Origin: Escherichia phage p000v
Strand: one strand, 5' to 3'
Sequence record: NC_055781.1
Length of the DNA stretch: 64,000 nt
In this document: positions 13,386-60,453 of the stretch, piece by piece
Layout of the letters: each line of letters opens with the position of its first letter
Position numbering within the stretch: position 1 is the stretch's first letter
Program-made: the position numbers and the translations under genes
Notes under the pieces: generated by a model
Database searches by the model: none
Seen by the model: the letters and a program-made list of their open reading frames with translations, nothing else
What the model was told of the DNA's origin: nothing

Positions 13386-13457
13386 TATCTCGTGCTTTAA
13401 GATAGGTCTCTAAATATTATGATATAATAGACCTATGAATTGAGCCAAGAGGTACTT

Positions 13458-14015
13458 ATGACTGAACAAAAACCTAAAAATAACTATGTGAATAATAAAG
13501 AGCTTCTCGCCGCTATAATCGAGTGGAAAAAGGAGCTCTTAAATAATAAAGACCCAAACAAAATTATTCGTCAGAATGATACCATCGGTTTAGCAATTAT
13601 GCTTATCGCCGAAGGCCTGTCCAAACGTTTCAACTTTTCAGGATATACCCAGTCTTGGAAGCAGGAGATGATTGCAGATGGGATTGAAGCCTCTATTAAG
13701 GGACTTCATAATTTCGACGAAACTAAGTACAATAACCCACATGCATACATAACTCGAGCTTGTTTTAATGCTTTTGTCCAACGTATCAAAAAAGAACGTA
13801 AGGAAGTTGCAAAGAAATATAGTTACTTCGTTCATAATGTCTACGACAGTCATGACGATGATATGGTAGCGTTGGTAGATGAAACGTTTATTCAAGACAT
13901 CTACGATAAAATGACGCATTATGAAGAATCCGCTTATAAAGCTCCTGGGGCTGAAAAGAAGGAAGTTGTTAGCGATTCGCCTAGTTTGGATTTTTTATAT
14001 GAGGATGACAATTGA
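13458..14015 (+). CDS. 55: late-transcription sigma factor gp55
   Basis: [59 protein letters not shown] matches recalled T4 gp55; ATG 13458 with RBS GAGGT. Confidence 0.9.
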
Positions 14016-14215
14016 CATCTCTAACTACTTAGAAGAACCTTTTGACGAAGCAATCCCTTATTTGGTAAAACTGTTGGGTCGTGAATTTAAAATTAATTTT
14101 GACATCGACCCTTTGAACCCACATGACGTGTCATTTTCAATAAATGGGACTCCAGTTGAGTACGAGTTCTGTATTGAAGAGGATGGACGTTTTTATTTTA
14201 ATTTAATGAGATAAT

Positions 14216-14539
14216 ATGACTACCGAGATTATTGAAAATAAAGAAGCAGAAGATGCAGTAGCTAAAATGCTACAAGAAATCCAAAAGAAAAATGAAGCTG
14301 AAGCACGTAAAAAATCCGAAAAGATTCTTAAAAAGAATCGTTTTGAACTAAACCGTCTTTATGCACATGCTCAAGAAGCAGCAATTCAAAACAACTTCGA
14401 AGCTTACGAATATGCTATTAAGAAATCTCGGGATATTCTACGACAACCATATAATGACAAGTTAATTAAAATCCAGTGGATTACTACTCGTCAGGCTATT
14501 GAGGACATCATTAATGGCGCTAGTTCAAACAAAGTTTAA
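14216..14539 (+). CDS. hypothetical protein
   Basis: ORF track 107 aa. Confidence 0.45.
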   Translation: MTTEIIENKEAEDAVAKMLQEIQKKNEAEARKKSEKILKKNRFELNRLYAHAQEAAIQNNFEAYEYAIKKSRDILRQPYNDKLIKIQWITTRQAIEDIINGASSNKV

Positions 14540-14720
14540 ACGTCTGAAGCTGAACGCAGGGTTCTCTCTTAAATTGGGAGGTCCTCTTTGTGTTAAAATT
14601 TCTGAAAAGGAATATCACGACGGTTCTATTACAGAAATTTGTCCGCCTATTGTAAAGGCAGACCCAAAACAACTCGTATGGGTCGATTCATTTCAAGTTA
14701 AGAAATGGTGGAAACGATGA
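14514..14720 (+). CDS. hypothetical protein
   Basis: Internal ATG with GAGGA 9 nt upstream; overlaps previous ORF. Confidence 0.35.
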   Translation: MALVQTKFKRLKLNAGFSLKLGGPLCVKISEKEYHDGSITEICPPIVKADPKQLVWVDSFQVKKWWKR

Positions 14721-14933
14721 GAGAAATTGATTTAGGCATTTTCTGAGAGGTGCTTATGCATGACGAACATCCCGACTTCTGAAAATTTCGATAAAATCCG
14801 TAAAGGCAAAGCAGAAAGAATGAGACGTTTTAAAGAGTCTTATGATAAAGCTAAAGCCGAAGGAACTATTACGTACAAGCCCATTCGATTTAAAAGTTCA
14901 AATGAGCCTTTGTACGGTGTACTATGTGGATAG

Positions 14934-14957
14934 GAACTCTTCGGAGTTCCTTTTTTG
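14934..14957 (+). terminator. rho-independent terminator GGAACUC-UUCG-GAGUUCC + U6
   Basis: 7 bp stem, UUCG loop, TTTTTT tail. Confidence 0.6.
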
Positions 14958-15002
14958 CTTTATAAACGGATGATAGAATGAATTAACTAATGAGGAAATA
15001 AT

Positions 15003-16022
15003 ATGAAAATTTTGCACTTAGGCGACTTCCATATCGGAGTCAAACAAGACGACCCATGGGTCCAAGATATTCAACGTGATGGTATTCGTCAAGCAATTGA
15101 ATACTCTAAGAAACACGGGATTAAAACTTGGATTCAGTACGGTGATTGGTTTGACGTCCGTAAAGCAATAACACATCGTACAATGGAATTCAATCGTGAA
15201 ATCGTTGATATGATTTCTAAAGCAGGCATTCACGTTCATGTCACGATAGGAAACCATGACATGGCGTTTAAGAATACAATAACACCTAACACTGTTTCTG
15301 AATTGTTAACTCAATTTGAAAACTTTACTATTTACGAACATCCAACTACTGTAGATTTTGACGGATGTCTGATTGATATCGTTCCGTGGATGTGTGAAGA
15401 AAATACAGGTGAAATCTTAGAGCACATCAAGACTTCTTCTGCTGCGTATTGCGTTGGTCACTGGGAACTGAACGGCTTTTATTTCTATAAAGGAATGAAG
15501 TCTCATGGGCTTGAACCTGATTTCTTAAAGACCTATAAACAAGTCTGGTCTGGCCACTTCCACACAATCTCTGAAGCTGCTAACGTCAAATATATTGGGA
15601 CACCATGGACCCTTACTGCAGGTGACGAGAACGACCCACGTGGATTCTGGGTATTTGACACTGATGTTGAACGTATGGAATTTATTCCTAATGAAACAAC
15701 ATGGCATCGACGAATCACTTATCCATTTAAAGGCAAAATCAATTATTCTGATTATACTAATCTAGCCGTACGTGTTATAGTATCAGAAATTGATTCAGAG
15801 TTGACTAAATTTGAATCTGAACTTGAAAAAGTAGTTCACTCTCTTCGTATGGTTTCTAAAGTTGATAACAGTGTTGAATCTGATGACGACCAGGAAATCG
15901 AGATTAAATCACTTCAAGATATCATTAAAGAATATATTGACGCGATTCCAGATATCTCAGACGAAGACAGAGAAGCGCTGGTCAAATATTCCAACGAACT
16001 TTATATTGAGGCAACACAATGA
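15003..16022 (+). CDS. 47: recombination endonuclease subunit gp47 (Mre11/SbcD-like)
   Basis: 339 aa; phosphoesterase motifs LHLGDFHIG and GNHD. Confidence 0.9.
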   Translation: MKILHLGDFHIGVKQDDPWVQDIQRDGIRQAIEYSKKHGIKTWIQYGDWFDVRKAITHRTMEFNREIVDMISKAGIHVHVTIGNHDMAFKNTITPNTVSELLTQFENFTIYEHPTTVDFDGCLIDIVPWMCEENTGEILEHIKTSSAAYCVGHWELNGFYFYKGMKSHGLEPDFLKTYKQVWSGHFHTISEAANVKYIGTPWTLTAGDENDPRGFWVFDTDVERMEFIPNETTWHRRITYPFKGKINYSDYTNLAVRVIVSEIDSELTKFESELEKVVHSLRMVSKVDNSVESDDDQEIEIKSLQDIIKEYIDAIPDISDEDREALVKYSNELYIEATQ

Positions 16023-16502: not shown

Positions 16503-18187
16503 AATCATTTAAATTAAATCGTGTTCGTTATCAAAACATCATGTCGGTAGGTGGGAATCCTATTGATATCCAATTAGATAAAGTCCAAAAGACATTAATC
16601 ACTGGTAAAAATGGTGGTGGTAAATCTACGATGTTAGAAGCCATTACTTTCGGACTTTTCGGTAAACCATTTCGTGATGTTAAGAAAGGACAAATCATTA
16701 ATAGCACGAACAAGAAAGAGCTCTTAGTTGAGCTTTGGATGGAATTCGATGATAAAAAATACTTCATTAAACGTGGCCAAAAGCCCAATATTTTCGAAAT
16801 CTCCGTTGACGGTGTTCGTCTTGATGAATCTGCCAGCAGTCGTGACTTCCAAGAAGAATTTGAACGTAGCATCGGAATGTCATACGCGTCTTTTAAACAG
16901 ATCGTTGTGCTTGGGACGGCAGGGTATACCCCTTTCATGGCTCTTAGCACCCCTGCTCGTAGAAAACTTGTCGAAGACCTTTTAGAAGTCGGCACACTCG
17001 CTGAAATGGATAAAATCAATAAGTCTCAAGTTCGAGAACTTAATTCCCAGGGGCAAGTTCTCGATGCCAAGAAAGATGGTATTATCCAACAAATTAAGAT
17101 TTATAACGAGAATATCGAACGCCAAAAGAAATTATCTGGCGATAATGTAGCACGTCTACAGAATATGTATGACGACCTAGCCAAAGAAGCTCGTTCATTA
17201 AAAGCAGAAATTGAAGAAGCTAATGAGCGTCTACTTAATATCGTTCTTGACGAAGACCCTACTGAGGCATTCAACAAGATCGGACAAGAAGCATTCTTGA
17301 TTAAATCTAAAATCGACTCATATAACAAAGTTATTAAGATGTATCATGACGGTGGCACATGTCCTACTTGTGCATCACAGTTGCACCAGGGTGATCCTAT
17401 TGTCTCTAAGATTACCGATAAGCTTCATGAATGTAATCACTCATTCGAGCAACTTACCTGTCACAGAGATAATCTGAGTGTCCTAGTGGACGAATATAGA
17501 GCTAATGTTAAGACTAAACAGGACCTTGCATCTGATATTCGTACCAAGAAACAAGCAATGATTGCCACTATTGATAAAGCTAAGAAAGTTAAAGCTGCAA
17601 TAGAACAAGCCTCGGCGGAATTTATCGACCATGCCGATGAGATAGCTTTGCTTCAAAAAGAACTTGATAAAATCATTAAAACAAAATCGGATAACGTTCT
17701 TGAAAAATACCATCGTGGTATTATAACAGATATGTTAAAAGATTCTGGTATTAAAGGTGCTATCATTAAAAAATATGTGCCTCTGTTCAACAAGCAGATT
17801 AACCATTACCTTAAAATCATGGAAGCTGATTATGTGTTTTCTATTGACGAAGAATTCAATGAATCTATAAAATCACGTGGTCGTGAAGATTTTAGTTATG
17901 CTTCATTTAGTCAAGGTGAAAAGGCACGTATCGATATCGCATTGTTGTTTACATGGCGAGATATTGCTGAAAAAGTTTCTGGTGTTAAAATCAACACGTT
18001 GATTCTTGATGAGGTTTTTGACGGCGCTGTAGATTCTGAAGCTGTTAAGGCTATAGATACCATTCTTGGAAGTTTACAAAATACTAACGTGTTCATTATC
18101 TCTCATCGAGACCATGACCCTCAACGTTATGGACAACATCTTCAGATGAGTAAAGTTGGACGATTTACTGTAATGACTGTTTCATAA
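16499..18187 (+). CDS. 46: recombination endonuclease subunit gp46 (Rad50/SbcC-like ATPase)
   Basis: 562 aa; Walker A GKNGGGKST, long coiled-coil middle, D-loop LILDEVFDG. Confidence 0.9.
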   Translation: MKSFKLNRVRYQNIMSVGGNPIDIQLDKVQKTLITGKNGGGKSTMLEAITFGLFGKPFRDVKKGQIINSTNKKELLVELWMEFDDKKYFIKRGQKPNIFEISVDGVRLDESASSRDFQEEFERSIGMSYASFKQIVVLGTAGYTPFMALSTPARRKLVEDLLEVGTLAEMDKINKSQVRELNSQGQVLDAKKDGIIQQIKIYNENIERQKKLSGDNVARLQNMYDDLAKEARSLKAEIEEANERLLNIVLDEDPTEAFNKIGQEAFLIKSKIDSYNKVIKMYHDGGTCPTCASQLHQGDPIVSKITDKLHECNHSFEQLTCHRDNLSVLVDEYRANVKTKQDLASDIRTKKQAMIATIDKAKKVKAAIEQASAEFIDHADEIALLQKELDKIIKTKSDNVLEKYHRGIITDMLKDSGIKGAIIKKYVPLFNKQINHYLKIMEADYVFSIDEEFNESIKSRGREDFSYASFSQGEKARIDIALLFTWRDIAEKVSGVKINTLILDEVFDGAVDSEAVKAIDTILGSLQNTNVFIISHRDHDPQRYGQHLQMSKVGRFTVMTVS

Positions 18188-18213
18188 ACGCTTTAACACG
18201 ATGTGGTTATAAT
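18188..18213 (+). promoter_or_regulatory. candidate middle promoter (MotA box CGCTTTA, -10 TATAAT)
   Basis: GCTTTA then 11 nt then TATAAT. Confidence 0.4.
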
Positions 18214-18241
18214 GACCACATCAAATTAAATGGAGAACAAC

Positions 18242-18430
18242 ATGGAGTATTCAACCGGACAACATCTTCTTGTTGTCCCTGAAATTAAAAAATATGTTTT
18301 GACCAATACGTTTTCAGGTGAAGAACATATTGTTACTGAACAAATGCTCAAATCTGCTTTTAAAGATGAGTATAATAAAATAATGTCTAATCGCAATTCC
18401 GCATGGACAGTTACTGACTTCTACGAATAA
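18242..18430 (+). CDS. hypothetical protein
   Basis: ATG after GGAG. Confidence 0.4.
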   Translation: MEYSTGQHLLVVPEIKKYVLTNTFSGEEHIVTEQMLKSAFKDEYNKIMSNRNSAWTVTDFYE

Positions 18431-24395: not shown

Positions 24396-25031
24396 ATGAA
24401 AACTACACCAATCACTATCGCTATTGACGCAATCGTAAAACAAGCTTCATCTCTTGCCACTATGGCTAAAGTAATTAGTCAAAACTCTGCCCGATATAAT
24501 GCTATTCTTGAAACTCTTCGTCGCCCTGGACTGAGTAATTATGAAAGCCGAGTAATTATTACAGGTGTTGGTAAGAACGCTAATATCGCAACTAAAGCTT
24601 CCGAGACTTTTGCTTCACTAGGTATTCCTAGCATGTATTTGAACACCGGGCATTATTCTCATGGCGACGCAGGATTTATTGCACCTAATGATGTATTAGT
24701 TCACATCAGTCGTTCTGGTAAGACTGAAGAAATGATAGGTGTTGCTAAACATCTTCGTATGATTCGTCCTCAGGTTAAACAGATTCTGTTACATTGTAAC
24801 CCTGACATTCCGCAAGAATACGAAGCTCTTTTTGATTATACGTTCTGTACAGGCATCGCGGTAGAGGTTGATGAGAATTCTCTGGCTCCGACCATGTCCA
24901 CTACATTGTTGTTAGCGCTTATCGATACGTTTGCTATCAACCTTTCGTCTGAACGTGGATTTACCTCTAATGACTTCCTTAAGTTCCACCCTGGTGGTGC
25001 ACTAGGTGCCATGTTACGAGGCGAACAATGA
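24396..25031 (+). CDS. SIS-domain sugar-phosphate isomerase, KdsD/KpsF-like arabinose-5-phosphate isomerase without CBS domains
   Basis: ITGVGKNANIATKASETFASLGIPS, SHGDAGFIAPNDVLVHISRSGKTEE and HPGGALG resemble the API SIS domain. Confidence 0.8.
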   Translation: MKTTPITIAIDAIVKQASSLATMAKVISQNSARYNAILETLRRPGLSNYESRVIITGVGKNANIATKASETFASLGIPSMYLNTGHYSHGDAGFIAPNDVLVHISRSGKTEEMIGVAKHLRMIRPQVKQILLHCNPDIPQEYEALFDYTFCTGIAVEVDENSLAPTMSTTLLLALIDTFAINLSSERGFTSNDFLKFHPGGALGAMLRGEQ

Positions 25032-25171
25032 AAGCAATAACAATAGGACTTTTACTATTGATGCTTGTCATGACTATCTACTGGAGCTTAACGGCTCCAG
25101 TAATGATTCCGACTCTTATAATCGGATGGATTATGATTGGACTACAAGCAAAGTATGAATGCTTTAACTAG
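25028..25171 (+). CDS. small hydrophobic peptide (47 aa, two predicted TM helices)
   Basis: ATGA overlap with upstream stop; below ORF-track size cutoff. Confidence 0.35.
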   Translation: MKAITIGLLLLMLVMTIYWSLTAPVMIPTLIIGWIMIGLQAKYECFN

Positions 25172-25184
25172 AATAGTGTACAAT
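25158..25184 (+). promoter_or_regulatory. candidate middle promoter (MotA box TGCTTTA, -10 TACAAT)
   Basis: TGCTTTA at 25160-25166, 12 nt spacer, TACAAT at 25179-25184. Confidence 0.4.
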
Positions 25185-25212
25185 ACACCTACTTACCAAT
25201 GAGGACTTCAAC

Positions 25213-26898
25213 ATGAAAAAAGCTGTTATTCTTGGTGCTGGACTGGCAACTCGTTTGTATCCAATAACGCACCATATTCCTAAGGTGCTTGTTAACTATA
25301 AACAAGACACTATTCTGAGCAATTTGTATACAATTTATTCTGACCTTGGCGCAGATGAAATTATTGTAGTAGTTCATTCAAAATTTGCTGAAACTGTTCG
25401 AGCTTATTGCGAGCAAGAAGGGTTCAATGTGACTATTCGTACAGTTGATGAAGCGTATGGTTCTGCTTATGCTCTTGCTAAATTATACAAAGATTTAGAT
25501 GGCCATAACGTAATTGTTAACTGGTGTGATATTATTCCTGACTTTGGTTCATGGTCTTGGAATGTTAACGCAATCTATGTTAAGGGTGATGAATGTCGAT
25601 ATAATTTCGATGGTGAAAATATCACTAACGTAGGTTCAACAGGTGGTAATGTTGTAGGAATTTATCAGTTCAAAGACTGGGAATTCTACATGGGTTCTAC
25701 TGATGAGGAAATTCACGAATACTGCAAAGGTCGTGATTTCGTAGAATTCCTTTACGGCAGTGCATTCAATAAATCAGAGCTTATGAATCTAATTGATTTA
25801 GGTGATATGCCTAAACTTGAAAAGGCTCATGAAGTTCGTGAACTGAATCGTAGTTTTAATGCAGTTGAAATTGGCGAAGAAACTGTAACTAAATTCGCGT
25901 TAACCGAACAAGGTCGAGCTCTTCAAAAAGATGAGATTTCATGGTATTTGAAAGTGAAATCAGATTCAGTTCCTCAGTTAGTTTCGGTAAATGAAAATAA
26001 TTTTGAAATGGAACGTATTAAAGGTAAGCCGGCATTTGAATATATTAAATCCAAATCAAGTCTTGCTCGTCCACAAATTGTTGATGCAATTTTAGATGCA
26101 CTGAAATTCAGCACGGACACTTATTTTGTAAGTCCTGAAACTGTTCGCCGTGATTTCACTAAAGAGTTCTATACGAAAGTTATTGATCGTTGTGAAAGCA
26201 TTCAGCCATTGATTGATTCATTTGGTAAAATCACACGTGTGAACTACACTAAGATTGGACGTCTGAAGCCAATGTTGAAACAAGCTTTAGAACATCTTAT
26301 TCGTTATCATAACCGTTCTCAGGGACAGTACTCTGTTATTCATGGTGACCCGAACTTCAGTAATACTATGATTACCGATAACGGCGAAGTCAAGTTTATC
26401 GACCCTCGTGGATATTTTGGTGAAACCAAGATTTACGGGCCAAAATTGTATGATGAAGCTAAAGTGCTTTATGCTGTTTCAGGTTATGATGAATTCAATG
26501 CTAATCCGACCTGGGGTCAGTTTACTATTGATGAAACAACTTGTAATGTGACTATTAACATCAATCCATTAGTTTACAAATATGGAAAGATGAGTTCGTT
26601 TAACGAGTATCATCATTTGGCAGTAGCAATTATCTGGATTGCATTAGGTGGTTATTTCAAGAATAATCCACTTAAAGCGGTTGCCGCATATTATAAAGGT
26701 ATGGAACTTCTGACTAAGCAATTACGTAACATGGGCCGTGTACTTCAAGACGGCTCTATTAGTTATGACGTAGCAGAACCTGTAACGGCTACTCTGATTA
26801 CAAAAAATCCTGGTAAATGGGTACTAACTGATAAAGAAACTGGTGTTTCCTATCGTCCAATCGGCGGCGATATCACTCATCAATGGGAACGAATCTAA
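25213..26898 (+). CDS. bifunctional sugar-1-phosphate nucleotidyltransferase / APH-like sugar kinase
   Basis: N-terminus ILGAGLATRLYPITHHIPKVLV is an NTP-transferase signature; C-terminal HGDPNFSNTMITDNGEVKFIDPRGYFG is an APH/choline-kinase catalytic motif. Confidence 0.8.
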   Translation: MKKAVILGAGLATRLYPITHHIPKVLVNYKQDTILSNLYTIYSDLGADEIIVVVHSKFAETVRAYCEQEGFNVTIRTVDEAYGSAYALAKLYKDLDGHNVIVNWCDIIPDFGSWSWNVNAIYVKGDECRYNFDGENITNVGSTGGNVVGIYQFKDWEFYMGSTDEEIHEYCKGRDFVEFLYGSAFNKSELMNLIDLGDMPKLEKAHEVRELNRSFNAVEIGEETVTKFALTEQGRALQKDEISWYLKVKSDSVPQLVSVNENNFEMERIKGKPAFEYIKSKSSLARPQIVDAILDALKFSTDTYFVSPETVRRDFTKEFYTKVIDRCESIQPLIDSFGKITRVNYTKIGRLKPMLKQALEHLIRYHNRSQGQYSVIHGDPNFSNTMITDNGEVKFIDPRGYFGETKIYGPKLYDEAKVLYAVSGYDEFNANPTWGQFTIDETTCNVTININPLVYKYGKMSSFNEYHHLAVAIIWIALGGYFKNNPLKAVAAYYKGMELLTKQLRNMGRVLQDGSISYDVAEPVTATLITKNPGKWVLTDKETGVSYRPIGGDITHQWERI

Positions 26899-27284
26899 TG
26901 CACCGTGTAGAAAACATGCTTAATCTTTGTTTTGATGTCGATGATTGTATAACAGAGTGGAATAACAATCGTGATTACGTGAACTTCAAACCAGACGTCG
27001 AAATGGTGTCTGCCATTAATGCCCTGTATGATGCAGGGCATACCATAACGCTTTACACTGCCCGTGGTATGAAGTCGGTAGGTCCTGGTCGTATAGCAAT
27101 TGACATTCTCCCAAGTCTGATTCAGAACTTGGAAAACATTGGTTTGAAGTACCATAATTTGCTAACACATAAACCAGTATATGATTGGATTATCGACGAC
27201 AAAGCTATGCGTCCTGACGAATTCAAAGCTCTTATGAATAAAGGCGAATTCGAAACATTTAAATCATATAAACCAAATCTATAA
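26883..27284 (+). CDS. HAD-superfamily phosphatase (small, capless)
   Basis: Motif I FDVDDCIT, motif II TLYTAR, motif III/IV K..(n)..IIDDKA; alternative ATG at 26898. Confidence 0.7.
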   Translation: MGTNLMHRVENMLNLCFDVDDCITEWNNNRDYVNFKPDVEMVSAINALYDAGHTITLYTARGMKSVGPGRIAIDILPSLIQNLENIGLKYHNLLTHKPVYDWIIDDKAMRPDEFKALMNKGEFETFKSYKPNL

Positions 27285-27341: not shown

Positions 27342-28502
27342 ATGAATACTTTTAAAATCGGAACGAATTTTGATTTAGCTCTTCTTGATAAAATCGTAGA
27401 GCTCAATAAAACCTATCCTAATAGCTTGATAAACGAAGTATATGGCTCTACAAGAGAAATGGCTTTTGTAGCAGCCAGACCTGATTTTAGGCTTCCTGAC
27501 GTTGACAAAAAGATGTTAGAAGACTACGTTAAACGTTGTAACGAATTAGGTATTTGCTTTAACTATACACTCAACACGATAAATCCTGGTTCAAAAAGAG
27601 AACTAGTTGAGTGGAAGAAGAAAGCTATTCAGGATTATGTTCAGTATCTTTGGTCAATAGGCGTATGGCGTATTACTATCGCTAACCCTGTTGTTATGGA
27701 AATTGTTCGTGAAGTCAATAAAGATATTGAGATTGAAGTTTCAACAATTCTACATGTCGATGCGGTAACTCAAATCAAATACTTACATGACCAATATAAC
27801 ATCAAAAAGGTCTGTTGCGGAATTCATAAGAACCGTTCAGTTTCTTTCCTGAAGCGTGCAGCAGAGTTTTGCAATAAGAACAATATAATATTTGAAGTTC
27901 TTGTAAATGAGTTCTGTTCTAATGCTGGTAAAGGGTATACAACACATTGTAGTTATCGTGACTCTTGCTATATTTTCCATAGTACTGATGTTACCGCTGA
28001 TGATGCTAAATCCTTAAATGGATATCCTATGCAGCACTGTATTAAAGCTCGTGATACAGACCCATTTAACTGGTTGAGAACTCGTTTTGTTCGTCCTCAA
28101 GATTTGAAACTTTATAATGATATTGGTATCACTCAATTCAAAGTTTCAGGACGTACAGGTAGCACAGACTACATTTTGAAAGTTCTTGAAGCATACGCTT
28201 CTGAAAAGTTTGAAGGTAATTTGTTAGAACTGTGGAAGCCTTTAGAGACTATTTTCACTCTTGAAAATGAGACTGAGTTTTCACATACAGTAAATATTGA
28301 AACCTCTTTGTTAGATGGCTTTTTAGAAAAAAGGTGGTTCAGACATCCAGATTTTGATTGTGCTAATGAAATCTGTGGGTCAACGTGTACATATTGTGAA
28401 AGGTATTATAAACGTCAATTATCTAAAAACGGGTTAGCAGAAAACTCCATATCTATTATTGATATAACTAACTCTGATGACGCTTTGAGGTACCCGGAAT
28501 GA
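27342..28502 (+). CDS. Cys-rich protein of unknown function (possible metal or Fe-S enzyme)
   Basis: 386 aa; Cys clusters CC, C-x10-C-x6-C and C-x4-C-x3-C-x2-C; no recognisable family by eye. Confidence 0.6.
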   Translation: MNTFKIGTNFDLALLDKIVELNKTYPNSLINEVYGSTREMAFVAARPDFRLPDVDKKMLEDYVKRCNELGICFNYTLNTINPGSKRELVEWKKKAIQDYVQYLWSIGVWRITIANPVVMEIVREVNKDIEIEVSTILHVDAVTQIKYLHDQYNIKKVCCGIHKNRSVSFLKRAAEFCNKNNIIFEVLVNEFCSNAGKGYTTHCSYRDSCYIFHSTDVTADDAKSLNGYPMQHCIKARDTDPFNWLRTRFVRPQDLKLYNDIGITQFKVSGRTGSTDYILKVLEAYASEKFEGNLLELWKPLETIFTLENETEFSHTVNIETSLLDGFLEKRWFRHPDFDCANEICGSTCTYCERYYKRQLSKNGLAENSISIIDITNSDDALRYPE

Positions 28503-28780: not shown

Positions 28781-29497
28781 ATGGGAAAACATAACACAAT
28801 GAAATATATCAAAGCCGCAGATTTTCAAACCGCATTTAAAGCAGTCAATCGTGAAATTTTAGAAAACCCGGAATTCGTAACTGATTCTCGTATTGGACGT
28901 TGTAATGAAATTGGGTCTATGACAGTAGTTGTTGACACTCCATCATCATTCAAAATGACCGACCCACGTATTAACCGCATCTCTTATGAATATGCCGAAG
29001 ACTTCTGGAAGTTTATGATTTCTGGTGGTACCAACGCAGAAGAAGCGTTTAAGGCATATCCTAATGTCGCTAAATTTATTTCTAAACCAAAATCAGATGT
29101 TTTGCCGGCGAACTTCAACACTTTCTATGGTCCTCGCATTGCGGCCCAATTACCAACTCTTCTAAAAGAACTTAAAGAGAAGCCTAACTCCCGAAGAGTT
29201 GTGTTCCAAATTCTAGAAAGTTCTGATCAGGCTTTGCTTGATTCGGACGAAACACTTGAATATCCATGTACTGACTCAGTAACTTATTATATTCGTGATG
29301 GTAAGCTTTATACCCACTGTCATATGCGTTCTCAGAACTGTGCTGTTGTTATGCAGTTGGATTTTTATCTCCAAGGAAAATTACTTCATTATATCGCTAA
29401 CGAATGCGGTGTAGAAGTTGGTGATTATACTCATACCATGGTAAGTGCCCATGTGTTTGAACGTGATTTTGATTATGTTAAAGGATTCCTTGACTAA
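28781..29497 (+). CDS. 42: thymidylate-synthase-fold pyrimidine hydroxymethylase (dCMP hydroxymethylase gp42)
   Basis: TS-like motifs NSRRVV, catalytic Cys in EYPCTDS, HMRSQN; synteny with T4 gene 42. Confidence 0.75.
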   Translation: MGKHNTMKYIKAADFQTAFKAVNREILENPEFVTDSRIGRCNEIGSMTVVVDTPSSFKMTDPRINRISYEYAEDFWKFMISGGTNAEEAFKAYPNVAKFISKPKSDVLPANFNTFYGPRIAAQLPTLLKELKEKPNSRRVVFQILESSDQALLDSDETLEYPCTDSVTYYIRDGKLYTHCHMRSQNCAVVMQLDFYLQGKLLHYIANECGVEVGDYTHTMVSAHVFERDFDYVKGFLD

Positions 29498-30396
29498 TGG
29501 CTATTTTCCGCGTACCAATCTTGAGTATGCGGTCTTATGAAACTGGACAGTATGCTATCCTTAAGGATGGCAACTTCCAACTTCATTTGCACCGTGCTAA
29601 TCCGGGTGATGTGATTACATATCCACGTAATGCATCTGATATTAAAGAATGCGAACGTCTTTTCCCAGAATTTAAGTTTGTTCCATTATGGTATAAAGAT
29701 AACGCGTATAACACTCGTAAATATTTCTGGACTGAAAATGAATTTGTGGTTGATTCATTAATTGATTATTATGATTGTGATTTTCTAATCACAGATATCA
29801 CTGGTTATGGTGGCGCTTTTGATGTGGAATTCAATTTCAATATCACTGCAGACCCTAATAAACCACGTTTTTATATTGATGAATTCTTAAAAACCGACAT
29901 GTTGTCTGTTAATCGTTCACTTCAAACTACTGTGTTGAATGAACGTCAAAAAGAAGTGCTGGTTAACGCAGGTGCAGATGGTAATAAGATTATCGTAACG
30001 CAGAAAGTTATACGTCCTTCCATCATGCAGCGTCTTGTAGGTGATTTGGCTCCTATTCATCTAGATGGTATTTTTCATCCATTTCGAATTAGTGACCCAT
30101 GTTATCGTTTTGAACAAGTGGTTGAATGTGCAATTCAATTAGGTCAACCGCTTTATATAACCGATCCAAATAATAGCTTCGACAGAAATAAGTATCCTGA
30201 AGAAGCGCTGATTCGAATTTTTAAACCAACTAAAACTGAGTACTATCAAATTCTTAAAGGACGTCCGAAAATTCAATATTTCGAAAATCCTGAAGAAGTA
30301 TTCCATCCAGGTCTTGGTGAGTTCATCTACTTTAATGCTTTAATTTCTTCGCCGTATAATATACCTAAATACGAAGATGTCGTAATCGAGGAATAA
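29497..30396 (+). CDS. hypothetical protein occupying the T4 b-gt position
   Basis: 299 aa; coupled start TAATG; no recognisable motif. Confidence 0.55.
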   Translation: MAIFRVPILSMRSYETGQYAILKDGNFQLHLHRANPGDVITYPRNASDIKECERLFPEFKFVPLWYKDNAYNTRKYFWTENEFVVDSLIDYYDCDFLITDITGYGGAFDVEFNFNITADPNKPRFYIDEFLKTDMLSVNRSLQTTVLNERQKEVLVNAGADGNKIIVTQKVIRPSIMQRLVGDLAPIHLDGIFHPFRISDPCYRFEQVVECAIQLGQPLYITDPNNSFDRNKYPEEALIRIFKPTKTEYYQILKGRPKIQYFENPEEVFHPGLGEFIYFNALISSPYNIPKYEDVVIEE

Positions 30397-30397
30397 A

Positions 30398-30946
30398 ATG
30401 GCTAAAATTATTTTAGTAGATGGCCCGGATAATGCCGGTAAAACAACTTTCATTAATGACATAATGGAAATTAGTGAAAGATATGTAAAGATTGATTTCC
30501 CTAAACGAACAGTTGATGGACGTTTCGATGTTAAGTCTCGAAATGAAGTTGGCTGTTTCGAAACGATGTTGAATTATTTAGACCCTACTAAGATTTATCT
30601 GTTAGACCGTGGATATATTAGTAACTGGGTTTATGGACGTATTCGACAAGATGCGGACTCGATTCTTGACGTTTATGAACAGGACTATGTTCGTCTTTGC
30701 CAAAACCATGATGTGTTCACAATTATTTTAACACGTAACGAAATGACTGAAAGTTTTGAAGACGACCTTATTACTTTGTCTTCATTCGGTTTTAATACAG
30801 TCATTTCACATTTTGAAGAGTTTGCAATTCATAACAAAATCCAAACATATCAATTACTTAATCATGATGGTGCTAACAAAGTTATAGGATTTAATGCAAG
30901 CGAACGTAATGGTTTGATTACAGAAATCATCAAATGGGCTCGTTAA
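30398..30946 (+). CDS. P-loop kinase-like protein
   Basis: Walker A GPDNAGKTT and LLDRGY motif reminiscent of nucleoside/nucleotide kinases. Confidence 0.55.
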   Translation: MAKIILVDGPDNAGKTTFINDIMEISERYVKIDFPKRTVDGRFDVKSRNEVGCFETMLNYLDPTKIYLLDRGYISNWVYGRIRQDADSILDVYEQDYVRLCQNHDVFTIILTRNEMTESFEDDLITLSSFGFNTVISHFEEFAIHNKIQTYQLLNHDGANKVIGFNASERNGLITEIIKWAR

Positions 30947-37509: not shown

Positions 37510-38532
37510 ATGGCTGAATGGATAGATAATGAATTTGCTTATCGTGCGTTTTCTCACCTACCTCGTTTTAGACAAATCAATAATTCAAGCACATTTAAAT
37601 TAACATTTCGATGCCCAGTTTGTGGCGACTCTCAGACAGATGCAATGAAAGCCCGCGGATGGTATTATGGCGGTACTCCAGGTAATGTGCATTGCTATAA
37701 CTGCCAATATCATAATACAATTTCTGGATACTTAAAAGAGTACGATGAAGAGCTTTATCGCGAGTATCTAATGGAAGTTCGTAAAGAAAAAGCTAGAATG
37801 GAACCAAAGATTGAAAAGGTTCCTGAACATAAACCGGAACCGGAGAAAAAGACTATAAATTCTTTGCCGTCTTGTTCTCGTCTGGACAAGTTGCCTGAAG
37901 AGCATCCTATTGTGAAATATGTTAAGTCTCGGTGTATTCCTAAAGAATCATGGAACAGATTATGGTTCACATTAGAATGGCCCAAATTGGTCAACAAGAT
38001 TCAACCTGGTACGTATAAGAAAGAGATTCCCGAGCCACGTTTAGTGATTCCTATTTTTAATAAAGACGGGAAGGCCGAGTCATTCCAAGGACGTGCACTT
38101 CGTAAAGATGCTCCTCAAAAATATATCACTATTAAAGCTTTTGAATCCGCAACAAAAATTTATGGTGTTGAACGTGTTAAGGAAGGGGACGTCTGGGTAA
38201 TGGAAGGCCCTATTGATAGTTTATTCATACCCAATGCAATAGCTATTACAGGCGGCTCAATAGATTTAGATGTGGTGCCATTTAAAGAACGTCGGGTATG
38301 GGTAATGGATAATGAACCTAGGCATCCGGATACTATAGCTCGTATGAAGCGATTAGTTGATGCAGGCGAACGTGTCATGTTCTGGGACCGAGCTCCATGG
38401 AGATCAAAGGATGTGAATGATATGGTAATGAAAGAAAATGCAACACCACAAGAAATTTTAGAATATATGAAACAGAATATTTCAAGTGGGTTGCATGCTA
38501 AAATGAGATTATCTCGTTATTCGAAGATTTAA
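37510..38532 (+). CDS. 61: DNA primase gp61
   Basis: Zinc ribbon CPVCGDS..CYNC, TOPRIM-like MEGPIDSLF and VMDNE; 340 aa. Confidence 0.9.
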   Translation: MAEWIDNEFAYRAFSHLPRFRQINNSSTFKLTFRCPVCGDSQTDAMKARGWYYGGTPGNVHCYNCQYHNTISGYLKEYDEELYREYLMEVRKEKARMEPKIEKVPEHKPEPEKKTINSLPSCSRLDKLPEEHPIVKYVKSRCIPKESWNRLWFTLEWPKLVNKIQPGTYKKEIPEPRLVIPIFNKDGKAESFQGRALRKDAPQKYITIKAFESATKIYGVERVKEGDVWVMEGPIDSLFIPNAIAITGGSIDLDVVPFKERRVWVMDNEPRHPDTIARMKRLVDAGERVMFWDRAPWRSKDVNDMVMKENATPQEILEYMKQNISSGLHAKMRLSRYSKI

Positions 38533-38726
38533 ACAAGCCCTATAATAGCAAAGGCCAAATCAACTACAGTATCCAATGGAACAGAAGGAACTATAATACC
38601 ATGGGCAACTAACAATGGTGCAATCCCGAAGTTCCATGAAATAATGCCACCTACAACTATTGCAGCGATAGCAGTTTTCTTTTTATTGCCTTTAATAGCG
38701 TTGATTAACGATGGAAGTTTAAACAT
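38529..38726 (-). CDS. small membrane protein encoded on the opposite strand
   Basis: Strong RBS AAGGAG on minus strand 5 nt before ATG; hydrophobic 65 aa. Confidence 0.5.
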   Translation of the reverse strand: MFKLPSLINAIKGNKKKTAIAAIVVGGIISWNFGIAPLLVAHGIIVPSVPLDTVVDLAFAIIGLV

Positions 38727-48531: not shown

Positions 48532-48548
48532 GGGCTTCGGCCCTTTTT
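48531..48548 (+). terminator. hairpin AGGGC-UUCG-GCCCU + U5
   Basis: 5 bp stem, UUCG loop, TTTTT. Confidence 0.55.
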
Positions 48549-48594
48549 GCTTTAGATTTCGGATGATAGAATACCTTCATAACGAGGAGACAAC

Positions 48595-50415
48595 ATGATT
48601 AAAAATGAAATTAAGGTATTGTCGGATGTAGAACATATTAAGAAACGTAGTGGCATGTATATTGGTTCTTCTGCTAAAGAAGCCCACGAGCGTTTTTTGT
48701 TTGGTAAATATCAACAAGTTGAATATGTTCCTGGTCTGGTTAAATTAATCGATGAGATTATTGACAACTCGGTTGATGAAGCTATTCGTACATCATTTAA
48801 GTTTGCAAATAAAATTGATGTGCAAATTAAAAATAATCAAGTTTCGGTGGAAGATAACGGACGTGGTATTCCTCAAGGTTTAGTTACCGACCAAACAGGT
48901 GAACAAATTCCTGGGCCTGTAGCAGCCTGGACTATTCCAAAGGCCGGTGGTAACTTTGGTGATGACTCTGAACGTAAGACTGGTGGTATGAACGGCGTCG
49001 GGAGTAGTTTAACTAATATCTTCTCTACGTTGTTTACAGGCATCACGTCAGATGGCGAAAATGAAATCACTGTTAACTGTTCAAACGGAATGGAAAACAA
49101 ATCATGGTCTTCTAAGAAATCTAAAGGTAAAGGCACTAAAGTAATCTTCACTCCTGATTTCACTTCATTTGAAGAGCATAATTTATCTCAAATTTATTTA
49201 GATATTACTTTAGACCGACTTCAAACATTGGCAGTCGTTTATCCTGATATCAAGTTCACATTTAATGGTAAAAAGGTCGATGGTAATTTTAAACGATTTG
49301 CTAAACAATTTGGTGAAGATAACATCATTCAAGAAAATGATAAAGTCTCTATAGCATTCACAACATCACCAGATGGCTTCCGTCATTTAACTTATGTGAA
49401 TAACATCCATACTAAAAATGGTGGACATCATGTTGAATGTGTAATGGACGATATCTGCGAACATCTTTTGCCGGGTATTAAAAAGAAATATAAGGGTATT
49501 GAAGTCACTAAAGCTCGTGTTAAAGAATGTCTCACAATGTTGATGTTTATTAGAGACATGAGCAACATGCGTTTTGATTCTCAGACTAAAGAACGTTTAA
49601 CGTCAACGTACGGTGATATTCGTAATCATATCCAATTAGATGCTAAGAAAATTGCTCAGGCACTTCTTAAAAATGAAGCCTTGATTATGCCTATTGTTGA
49701 AGCAGCATTAGCTCGTAAATTGGCGGCAGAAAAGGCTGCAGAAACTAAAGCAGCTAAAAAGGCAACTAAAGCTAAGGTTCATAAGCATATTAAAGCTAAC
49801 CAATGTGGTAAAGATGCAGATACGACATTGTTTTTAACAGAAGGTGATTCGGCAATTGGATATCTCATTGATGTTCGTGACCGTGAACTACATGGTGGAT
49901 TCCCATTACGTGGTAAGGTGATGAATAGCTGGGGTATGTCATATGCTGATATGATGAAGAACAAAGAGCTCTTTGATATCTGTGCTATCACGGGTCTTAT
50001 TCTTGGTGAAAAAGCAGAGAATACGAACTATCGTAATATTGCAATTATGACCGATGCCGATCATGACGGCCTTGGAAGTATTTATCCTGCTTTGCTTGCT
50101 TTCTTTAGTAATTGGCCTGAATTGTTTGAACAAGGACGTATTCGCTTTGTTAAAACACCTGTAATTATTGCACAAATTGGCAAAACTCAAAAATGGTTTT
50201 ATACTGTAGCTGAGTATGAAGAAGTTAAAGATACACTGCCTAAGCATAGTATTCGATACATCAAGGGATTGGGCTCACTTCAGCGGGATGAATATAAAGA
50301 AATGATTCAAAACCCTGTGTACGACGTAGTTAAACTTCCTGAAAATTGGAAAGAACTATTTGAAATGCTCATGGGTAACGACCCTGAACTCCGTAAAGAT
50401 TGGATGCTAGGATAA
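48595..50415 (+). CDS. 39: topoisomerase II large subunit (GyrB-like ATPase plus TOPRIM), single uninterrupted ORF
   Basis: GHKL motifs IDEIIDNSVDEA and DNGRGIP; TOPRIM LFLTEGDSA and DADHDG; 606 aa. Confidence 0.92.
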   Translation: MIKNEIKVLSDVEHIKKRSGMYIGSSAKEAHERFLFGKYQQVEYVPGLVKLIDEIIDNSVDEAIRTSFKFANKIDVQIKNNQVSVEDNGRGIPQGLVTDQTGEQIPGPVAAWTIPKAGGNFGDDSERKTGGMNGVGSSLTNIFSTLFTGITSDGENEITVNCSNGMENKSWSSKKSKGKGTKVIFTPDFTSFEEHNLSQIYLDITLDRLQTLAVVYPDIKFTFNGKKVDGNFKRFAKQFGEDNIIQENDKVSIAFTTSPDGFRHLTYVNNIHTKNGGHHVECVMDDICEHLLPGIKKKYKGIEVTKARVKECLTMLMFIRDMSNMRFDSQTKERLTSTYGDIRNHIQLDAKKIAQALLKNEALIMPIVEAALARKLAAEKAAETKAAKKATKAKVHKHIKANQCGKDADTTLFLTEGDSAIGYLIDVRDRELHGGFPLRGKVMNSWGMSYADMMKNKELFDICAITGLILGEKAENTNYRNIAIMTDADHDGLGSIYPALLAFFSNWPELFEQGRIRFVKTPVIIAQIGKTQKWFYTVAEYEEVKDTLPKHSIRYIKGLGSLQRDEYKEMIQNPVYDVVKLPENWKELFEMLMGNDPELRKDWMLG

Positions 50416-51212
50416 TGAATTATCGTAAAATTTATGATAAACTTATCGCTGCGGCTAAAAACCGCAGCACTATTCCTAATTATACTGAAACTCACCATAT
50501 TTTGCCTAAATCTATGGGTGGGAGTAATGCTAAATCAAATCTAGTTAAAATGACCCCTAGAGAGCATTTTATCGCCCATTTATTGCTTTATAAAATTCAT
50601 AAGAACCGTTCTATGCTTATGGCTATTAGAGCTTTTTACATGGGAGCTAGAAATTCTAGAGATTATGATTGGCTTAAACAAGAATTCTCTAAAGAGCACT
50701 CTAGATTTATGAAAGAATGGATTGCTAAAAATGGCAACCCATTTAAAGGTAAAAAACATACTAAAGCAACAAGAGAATTAATGTCACATATTGCTTCACA
50801 ACGTATAGGCGAATTAAATCCGTTTTATGGTAAAACTCATACGCAAGAAGCAATAGATAAAATAATACAGGCCAACAAGTTATCTTGGGAGAATGGGCGA
50901 AAAGCACCTGTAAAAACAAAAGAACACCAGGATAAAATAACTAAATCAAGAATGGAAACATTTAAAACAAAAGGATTTAAACCATACACTCCTAGGTCGG
51001 AAGAAACTAAAGCTAAGACTAGAGAGTTGTATAAATCTAAATATGAAAGAAGGCCTATAAGAATCACAAGTGTAAAAACAGGTGAAACTATTGATTTTAA
51101 CTATCTTTATGAATTAAGGGAGTATTTAGGTATAGGGTCTTCTAATATATTGAAAGCATTAAATAATCCTAACAGAACCTGCAAAGGTTATAAAATGTGT
51201 TGGATGTCCTAA
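50415..51212 (+). CDS. HNH homing endonuclease with NUMOD3-like repeats
   Basis: ETHHILPKSMGG...N...REH HNH motif; repeated NPF(K/Y)GK.HT motifs; start overlaps gene 39 stop (TAATG). Confidence 0.8.
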   Translation: MNYRKIYDKLIAAAKNRSTIPNYTETHHILPKSMGGSNAKSNLVKMTPREHFIAHLLLYKIHKNRSMLMAIRAFYMGARNSRDYDWLKQEFSKEHSRFMKEWIAKNGNPFKGKKHTKATRELMSHIASQRIGELNPFYGKTHTQEAIDKIIQANKLSWENGRKAPVKTKEHQDKITKSRMETFKTKGFKPYTPRSEETKAKTRELYKSKYERRPIRITSVKTGETIDFNYLYELREYLGIGSSNILKALNNPNRTCKGYKMCWMS

Positions 51213-51254: not shown

Positions 51255-52355
51255 ATGAAAGTTATGTTTATCCCATCTCGCGCAGTCCCATTTAACCCAG
51301 AACGTGTACAAGGTGGTCTTGAAGCAGTACATTTAAATGTATTGAAATATCTTGTGTCCATCGGTGCTGATATTGATTATATCGGCTTTGATAATGACAC
51401 GTTTGGTGACTGGAAGGTTAATCATCATCCTGTTGGTCATCTGACTAAATTCAGTCTAGGTATGAGTTATACTATGGCTCGTAAGATTGTTGAACTAGCC
51501 GGCATCCATGAATACGATTTTGTTGTTACTATGGAACCGACTAAACTAACCGTTCAGGCAATTAAAGACGCAGGTCTCTCTAAAGTTCATAAGAATTTTA
51601 TGGCAACACCATTTGAACCGGTATCTCGTGGCATTGTTCAAATTTGGGACCAGACTATTCAAATTCATAAGAATGGTGGTAAGAGTTATGCTCCTACTAA
51701 AGCCTTCCGTGAATTTGAACGCAAATATTGTTATATGACTTCAGGTCTGACTGACAAAATTGATTATGATTATTGGCGAGCAAATCCGTTGTTTGAAGCC
51801 GAAGATTATCCGGTTATTTGTTTGACTGAAAAGCCAGAAGTTCTTCCGGCGACGGATCTGATTATTAGTGCACAACGTTATGACACTAAAATGCGTCGTA
51901 CTGATGTTGCTCTTGAAGCGATTAAAGCACTAGGCGAAAATGGTGCAGGATACTGTCCTAGTAAATGGGCACCACCAGCTAAATATCCTGTTATTATTGA
52001 TGCTCCACACAGCGAAATCATGGAACGTCTTAAAACAGCTAAAGCACTTATCAATACGTGTCCTGACACGGGTACGGTAGAGAATAGTTCTATTGAAGCC
52101 ATCTCTAAAGGTGTCCCTGTGATTCAGTTAGTTTTTAAGGATTATCCGCACGCGACATTCGAATATGACCCAGATACTGTGCGTGTAGAAATTGATTCCT
52201 CTACTCCTAAGAAAGAAGTAGTTGCGCTTTACACAAAAGCTGTATTAGAATTCACTGACACATACGAAGCTCGAGTTAAACGTGCTGAAGCAGTATGGAA
52301 GAAGTATAACCGAGATGCAGTTGTTGCGATGTGGGATAAAATCTTCACAGCGTAA
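51255..52355 (+). CDS. GT-B fold glycosyltransferase (candidate DNA hmC pentosyl/arabinosyl transferase)
   Basis: N-terminus MKVMFIPSRAV...GGLE and C-terminal ...GTVENSSIEAISKGVPVIQ resemble GT4-type GT-B motifs; 366 aa; lies between gene 39 and rIIA. Confidence 0.75.
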   Translation: MKVMFIPSRAVPFNPERVQGGLEAVHLNVLKYLVSIGADIDYIGFDNDTFGDWKVNHHPVGHLTKFSLGMSYTMARKIVELAGIHEYDFVVTMEPTKLTVQAIKDAGLSKVHKNFMATPFEPVSRGIVQIWDQTIQIHKNGGKSYAPTKAFREFERKYCYMTSGLTDKIDYDYWRANPLFEAEDYPVICLTEKPEVLPATDLIISAQRYDTKMRRTDVALEAIKALGENGAGYCPSKWAPPAKYPVIIDAPHSEIMERLKTAKALINTCPDTGTVENSSIEAISKGVPVIQLVFKDYPHATFEYDPDTVRVEIDSSTPKKEVVALYTKAVLEFTDTYEARVKRAEAVWKKYNRDAVVAMWDKIFTA

Positions 52356-59820: not shown

Positions 59821-60453
59821 ATGTCTAAAGTTACTTACATCATCAAAGCTTCTGAAAACGCTCTGAATGAAAAAACTGCTGCAATAATGGTTTATATCAT
59901 TAAGAACAACTTCACCACTGCTGCCAATGTCCGTGAAGCTCTGGAAGCAGAATACAATGCATCAGTTGTTAACTCTAACATCGGTGTATTGATTAAGAAA
60001 GGTTTAGTCGAAAAATCAGGTGATGGACTTGTAGCAACAGGCGAAGCAATGGATATTATCCAAAAAGCCGCAGATCTATTTGCTCAAGAAAATGCTCCAG
60101 AACTTCTTCAGAAACGTAACACTAGAAAAGCACGTGGAGTTACTCCTGAAATGCATGAATTAGCAAACTTTGTTTTTGAAAATATTAAAGATAAAGTTGA
60201 AGTTAAAGAAATTGGTGAAAACCGTAGTAACTTAGAAGTTCGATTTGCAAAACGAGTTCTAGGTATTCGTCAGATCGAAATTCGTCGAGATGGCGCTCTT
60301 AGAATCTTTGCATACAACATGTCAGAAACTGAATCAAAGCTGTTTACTTCTCTTGAAAATGATGTTAAGATTAAGATCGGTGGTAAATATACTTACATTG
60401 ACTTCCCTAATGTGTCCAAAGAAATCATTACCCTTGTAACTAACGTACTGTGA
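59821..60453 (+). CDS. motA: middle-transcription activator MotA
   Basis: MSKVTYIIKAS...VVNSNIGVLIKKGLVEKSGDGL..TGEA.DII..AA.L.AQENAPELL.KR.TRKAR matches recalled T4 MotA. Confidence 0.9.
   Translation: MSKVTYIIKASENALNEKTAAIMVYIIKNNFTTAANVREALEAEYNASVVNSNIGVLIKKGLVEKSGDGLVATGEAMDIIQKAADLFAQENAPELLQKRNTRKARGVTPEMHELANFVFENIKDKVEVKEIGENRSNLEVRFAKRVLGIRQIEIRRDGALRIFAYNMSETESKLFTSLENDVKIKIGGKYTYIDFPNVSKEIITLVTNVL

Follow-up and report, generated by a model that had tools for sequence, protein, structure and literature searches.

Arabinose was found in the DNA of the RB69 phage (PMC6024577), in which arabinosyl-5-hydroxycytosine and the activity of gp48 were subsequently reported (PMC13326640). 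In this pathway, gp48 makes 5-hydroxy-dCMP (Lee et al., PMC13326640), and the arabinosyl-5-hydroxycytosine chemistry was published in 2018 and 2025-2026 (Thomas 2018, PMC6024577; Lee 2026, PMC13326640). RB69 was also reported to have no homologs of the T4 and T2 glucosyltransferases (Thomas et al. 2018, PMC6024577; Lee et al. 2026, PMC13326640). In T4, the alpha-glucosyltransferase gene a-gt lies between genes 47 and 55, as originally stated and as the T4 record confirms: the region (NC_000866, 35428-40157) reads 55, a-gt.5, a-gt.4, a-gt.3, a-gt.2, mobB, a-gt, 47.1 and 47. In RB69 (NC_004928), genes RB69p066-p071 are annotated by RefSeq as 55, a-gt.5, a-gt.4, a-gt.3, a-gt.2 and 47, without a-gt. 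Since the RefSeq record carries this order, the arrangement has long been public.

We analysed a 64,000-nucleotide stretch of DNA from Escherichia phage p000v (NC_055781.1), hereafter called the window. Judged by its sequence, the source phage is a Mosigvirus, an RB69-like T-even coliphage. The 55-47 region shares 98.7-99.4% identity with Mosigvirus genomes, and FP43 aligns collinearly with the whole 64-kb window, at 97-98% identity and with a few indels. Positions 13440-16022 align with RB69 at 98.3% identity and zero gaps; the gene order is identical to that of RB69, and within the 55-47 interval the two show point differences only, with proteins that are 95-100% identical. FP43, a close relative with a complete 169-kb genome, was used as the stand-in for tblastn searches of a complete genome. 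It carries an extra ~1 kb (37656-38644) relative to window position ~3912 and an extra ~0.5 kb (76015-76513) relative to position ~41230, and these size differences are mosaic indel variation among Mosigviruses.

It is very probable that this phage is a Mosigvirus without a-gt at the 55-47 locus, whose cytosines are arabinosylated and not glucosylated. Gene content, orthology, the absence of glucosyltransferase homologs and the GT-B fold were determined in this analysis; the chemistry is that published for near-identical proteins. The gene content between genes 55 and 47, with the flanking genes, was as follows.

13458-14015, plus strand: gene 55, late-transcription sigma factor, 185 aa (tblastn, 91% to T4 gp55; 99.5% to RB69 gp55)
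13999-14214, plus strand: a-gt.5 ortholog, 71 aa (47% to T4 a-gt.5, E 1e-14; Pfam DUF5491, E 6e-13; phrog_1169)
14216-14539, plus strand: a-gt.4 ortholog, 107 aa (58% to T4 a-gt.4, E 4e-32; Pfam DUF2654, E 2e-27; 99% to RB69p069)
14514-14720, plus strand: a-gt.3 ortholog, 68 aa (69% to T4 a-gt.3, E 6e-29; phrog_1648, E 1e-33)
14760-14933, plus strand: a-gt.2 ortholog, 57 aa (76% to T4 a-gt.2, E 3e-24; Pfam DUF5486, E 5e-28)
14932-14957, plus strand: intrinsic terminator-like hairpin followed by T6 (8-bp stem, UUCG loop, fold energy)
14953-14979, plus strand: candidate MotA-dependent middle promoter, TTTTGCTTTA-N11-TAGAAT (motif, 5' of gene 47)
15003-16022, plus strand: gene 47, SbcD/Mre11-like nuclease subunit (76% to T4 gp47; 100% to RB69 gp47)

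The matches to DUF5486, DUF2654 and DUF5491 exceeded the Pfam cut-offs, and the order 3' of gene 55 was that of T4; by homology, the four small ORFs are conserved genes and not chance ORFs. The original prediction had described the interval 14016-15002 as empty, containing only small ORFs of about 70 to 110 aa and a terminator. The absence of a-gt and the presence of small ORFs only were borne out, but the ORFs range from 57 to 107 aa and the locus is not empty, given that ~878 of its 987 bases (~89%) are coding and belong to four conserved T4-type genes. It had also been right that no ORF of glycosyltransferase size is present: the longest ORF on either strand of the interval is 107 aa, and no a-gt-like ORF of ~400 aa lies between a-gt.2 and gene 47.

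Gene 55 and a-gt.5 share 17 nt, as in T4, and the first 26 nt of a-gt.3 lie within a-gt.4; GAGGA is located 9 nt 5' of the a-gt.3 ATG. The program-made ORF list starts gene 55 at TTG 13440, and the alignment with T4 and RB69 gp55 supports ATG 13458. The RB69 annotation of a-gt.5 gives 69 aa with a start at 14005; the start is probably ATG 13999, as in T4, rather than the annotated 14005. For a-gt.2 to a-gt.5, the literature search brought up nothing beyond a mention in comparative genomics work of 2006.

It is hardly conceivable that one of these small ORFs, a minus-strand feature or an RNA feature of the interval replaces the function of a-gt. Position is the one point in favour of such a replacement, which is effectively refuted by the orthology of the four ORFs to T4 genes that coexist with a-gt. 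Proteins of 57-107 aa are, moreover, too small for a GT-B fold, the interval yielded no match in Rfam and nothing notable in a repeat search, and a PDB search with the four small proteins returned no relatives.

The locus was then compared with that of T4. The flanking genes, the four small genes and the hairpin with its MotA-box promoter were alike, and past the stop codon of a-gt.2 the two sequences remained homologous across the hairpin and into GCTTTATAAA. The alignment that had been suggested as a check showed that exactly mobB, a-gt and 47.1 are missing. In T4, these three genes (264, 400 and 46 aa, respectively) occupy ~2.2 kb between the promoter and gene 47, whereas the corresponding gap in the window is ~23 bp, the ribosome-binding site of gene 47 included. 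In the window, gene 47 is preceded by a ribosome-binding site of its own (GAGGAAATAAT-ATG), whereas T4 gene 47 is coupled to 47.1. The window presents the order 55, a-gt.5, a-gt.4, a-gt.3, a-gt.2, probable terminator and candidate middle promoter, and 47; T4 has, in addition, the homing endonuclease gene mobB, a-gt and 47.1 inserted 3' of the promoter and 5' of gene 47.

The stem of the hairpin occupies 14932-14951 and the T6 run 14952-14957, so that the hairpin begins inside the a-gt.2 stop codon (14931-14933). A strong terminator had been proposed at 14934-14957; the hairpin with T6 is there, and its coordinates are 14932-14957. Its fold energy was -13.9 kcal/mol (z = -3.0); among 200 shuffled sequences, 2 folded equally well. 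A GC-rich hairpin followed by a U-run, as expected of an intrinsic terminator, is present, and the element probably acts as one.

A MotA promoter was defined as (a/t)(a/t)(a/t)TGCTTtA located ~12 bp 5' of a TAnnnT -10 element in a phage that encodes MotA. The motif at 14953-14979 has this structure and the window contains a MotA gene at 59821-60453; the motif is thus predicted to work as a MotA promoter. Matches to the MotA motif numbered 21 in the window against 4.7 expected. A sigma-70 promoter scan of the region gave 16 sites against 12.6 expected, with no excess over chance. A second MotA-box motif was noted at 48548-48572, just 5' of gene 39, and it shares the downstream string with the gene 47 promoter (TGCTTTA...CGGATGATAGAAT).

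The hairpin after a-gt.2 is common to T4, RB27, RB69 and Klebsiella phage Roth78, and in these phages, as in the window, it is directly followed by a MotA-box motif. The RB69 module equals that of the window except for a single base of the -10 element. In the window the promoter lies in front of gene 47, but its counterparts in T4, RB27 and Roth78 stand before mobB or a-gt. The module is present once in the window (14932-14979) and twice in T4 and Roth78, where the two copies bracket a-gt (T4 segment L003, 2560-2633 and 4675-4740; Roth78 segment L011, 3157-3239 and 4423-4506).

These paired modules bear on whether an ancestor that glucosylated its DNA recently lost a-gt as a cassette, through recombination of the similar terminator-promoter modules on either side, with the interval left as a deletion scar. 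In T4 and Roth78, a-gt is indeed bracketed by a GC hairpin, a TGCTTTA-like box and a -10 element; moreover, the left side of the window module resembles T4 module 1 (GCTTTATAAA) and its right side (CGGATGATAGAATGA) resembles T4 module 2 (CGGAGTTTGATATAATGA). Since the modules are short and alike everywhere, this hybrid look is weak evidence for a deletion, and tblastn found no a-gt remnant in the window. The distribution of a-gt in the 55-47 interval of other lineages was as follows.

Tequatrovirus (T4, RB27): a-gt present
Klebsiella phage Roth78: a-gt present
Dhakavirus (JS98): a-gt absent
Karamvirus (Pet-CM3-4): a-gt absent
Winklervirus (CHI14): a-gt absent
Krischvirus (GoldenSnicker): a-gt absent
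Acinetobacter phage Konradin: a-gt absent

All Mosigvirus records inspected likewise have the 55-47 order without a-gt. Because the a-gt-free order is spread across Mosigvirus, Dhakavirus, Karamvirus, Winklervirus, Krischvirus and an Acinetobacter phage, it is old, and a recent deletion is unlikely. The a-gt-free state reflects either ancestral absence or ancient loss, neither of which is favoured.

"Promoter-early stem-loop" cassettes have been proposed to shuffle genes in the hyperplastic regions of T4-type genomes. Given that two copies of the module bracket a-gt in T4 and Roth78, the cassette could be gained or lost by recombination at them. The hairpin and MotA-box module may be a portable junction whose copies, by recombining, could move an a-gt cassette into or out of T4-like genomes. 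As a corollary, a-gt.2 to a-gt.5 would have nothing to do with glucosylation despite their names, since phages without glucosylation conserve them too. We offer the portable junction and its corollary, taken together, as a tentative possibility.

Karamvirus and Winklervirus phages have no a-gt between genes 55 and 47, yet members of these genera carry b-gt and ba-gt, so the absence of a-gt at this locus alone is not diagnostic of DNA modification. What is decisive is the joint absence of a-gt, b-gt and ba-gt together with the altered homolog of gene 42 and the arabinose genes.

The presence of glucosyltransferase genes was assessed by tblastn, the check that had been suggested for a-gt and b-gt, to which the T2-type ba-gt was added. 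For T4 a-gt, the best E-value was 2.4 in the window; in the complete FP43 genome it was 0.042. For T4 b-gt, the best values were 1.9 and 3.7, respectively, which agrees with the earlier statement that b-gt is missing, and for ba-gt (280 aa, RB27 query) they were 0.32 and 0.83. Nothing significant was thus obtained in either sequence. The best a-gt match in FP43 (18164-18343; residues 18-86, 27.5% identity) lies within a hypothetical protein of 200 aa and most likely arose by chance. Among 50,697 phage records, homologs of a-gt were found in 657 and homologs of b-gt in 126; among the matches listed, the former were of T4/T2 type (Tequatrovirus type) or from Klebsiella phages, and the latter were T4-type, Karamvirus-like, Moon-like and others.

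The window covers 64 kb of a genome of ~168 kb, and Mosigvirus genomes are mosaic, with several indels relative to FP43, which would leave room for a glucosyltransferase encoded elsewhere and for DNA that is still glucosylated. We consider this very unlikely. The complete FP43 genome has no significant match to a-gt, b-gt or ba-gt, no such enzyme is reported in the RB69 literature, and, given a gene 42 homolog of the 5-hydroxy-dCMP synthase type, hydroxymethylcytosine is not expected as a substrate (PMC13326640). For the part of the genome outside the window, the absence of glucosyltransferases rests on relatives of 97-99% identity. The original view that the phage does not use the T4 glucosylation system is upheld by these searches and agrees with the RB69 literature.

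The replacement system lies in the same window and had been overlooked, including a GT-B glycosyltransferase in the b-gt slot. The complete RB69 arabinosylation gene set is present, with 96-100% protein identity to RB69 (gp45-gp55). Its genes are listed below.

24396-25031, plus strand: arabinose-5-P isomerase (RB69 gp55, 96-100%; Pfam SIS)
25213-26898, plus strand: bifunctional nucleotidyltransferase/kinase (RB69 gp53:52, 96-100%; Pfam NTP_transferase)
26898-27284, plus strand: phosphatase (RB69 gp51, 96-100%)
27342-28502: U32-family protein
28781-29497, plus strand: thymidylate-synthase homolog at the gene 42 position (98.7% to RB69 gp48; PDB 9iqc/9ir2, E 3e-160)
29497-30396, plus strand: 299-aa GT-B fold glycosyltransferase in the T4 b-gt slot (RB69 gp46:47)
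30398-30946: nucleotide kinase
51255-52355, plus strand: 366-aa GT4-like glycosyltransferase, RB69 ORF003c type (~98% to PDB 9iqz)

An isomerase, a kinase/nucleotidyltransferase and a phosphatase, the enzymes looked for as a UDP-arabinose supply, are encoded at 24396-27284, where a phrog_5670 match was also found. The RB69 phosphatase gp51 has been described as HAD-like (PMC13326640). The nucleotidyltransferase/kinase is a single 561-aa ORF; in RB69 RefSeq it is divided into p053 and p052, both of which map to one frame here.

The product of 28781-29497 shares only 25% identity with T4 gp42 and is thus no close homolog of the T4 dCMP hydroxymethylase; its near identity to RB69 gp48 identifies it as a thymidylate-synthase homolog of the 5-hydroxy-dCMP synthase type. 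Directly after it, the 299-aa GT-B protein is unrelated in sequence to T4 b-gt. It matched no Pfam family, and a profile search of its family against PDB sequences was empty; its homologs form more than 130 clusters in phages and metagenomes, all unannotated. The gene is a single intact ORF here and is split into p046/p047 in RB69 RefSeq, in agreement with the published view that a sequencing error produced the split.

A second GT-B transferase is provided by the ORF003c-type gene. RB69 ORF003c was proposed as an arabinosyltransferase candidate in 2018 (PMC6024577), and in the literature the gp46:47 type is the proposed first and the ORF003c type the proposed second arabinosyltransferase; both types are encoded in the window. 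The structure matched by the 366-aa protein, PDB 9iqz, is labelled "phage HY126 glycosyltransferase". An AlphaFold2 model of this ORF, built from 6 sequences only, was poor (pLDDT 61) and was not used, as the ~98% match to 9iqz suffices.

An HNH/NUMOD3 homing endonuclease gene was observed at 50400-51212, between gene 39 and the ORF003c-type transferase gene. The N-terminal 116 residues of its product are 45% identical to mobB, the a-gt neighbour in T4. FP43 lacks the gene, which phi25-307, phiC120 and other Mosigviruses carry, and this patchy occurrence indicates a variable mobile insertion.

The window encodes every component reported for RB69, and near-identical proteins have solved structures (9iqc, 9iqz). 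Compared with the arabinosyl-5-hydroxycytosine systems of Straboviridae (RB69, HY126, DLP3 and Bas46/47), no difference was detected in the window genes. In the pathway expected from the RB69 literature, the thymidylate-synthase homolog at the gene 42 position would produce 5-hydroxy-dCMP, phage enzymes would supply UDP-arabinose, and one or two arabinoses would be attached by the GT-B transferases encoded in the b-gt slot and beside rIIA. The alpha- and beta-glucosyltransferases would be unneeded because the cytosine modification pathway differs, and the DNA of this isolate would be expected to carry the arabinosyl modification.

The absence of a-gt in RB69-type phages has been documented since 2003-2018, and the finding is correct but ordinary. 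Its sole addition is another isolate with unsplit, intact versions of two RB69 pathway genes (p046/p047 and p052/p053). The phage is one of the T-even relatives in which hydroxymethylcytosine is not glucosylated, and this has a practical bearing on the choice of restriction enzymes, on sensitivity to CRISPR and other defence systems, and on sequencing chemistry.
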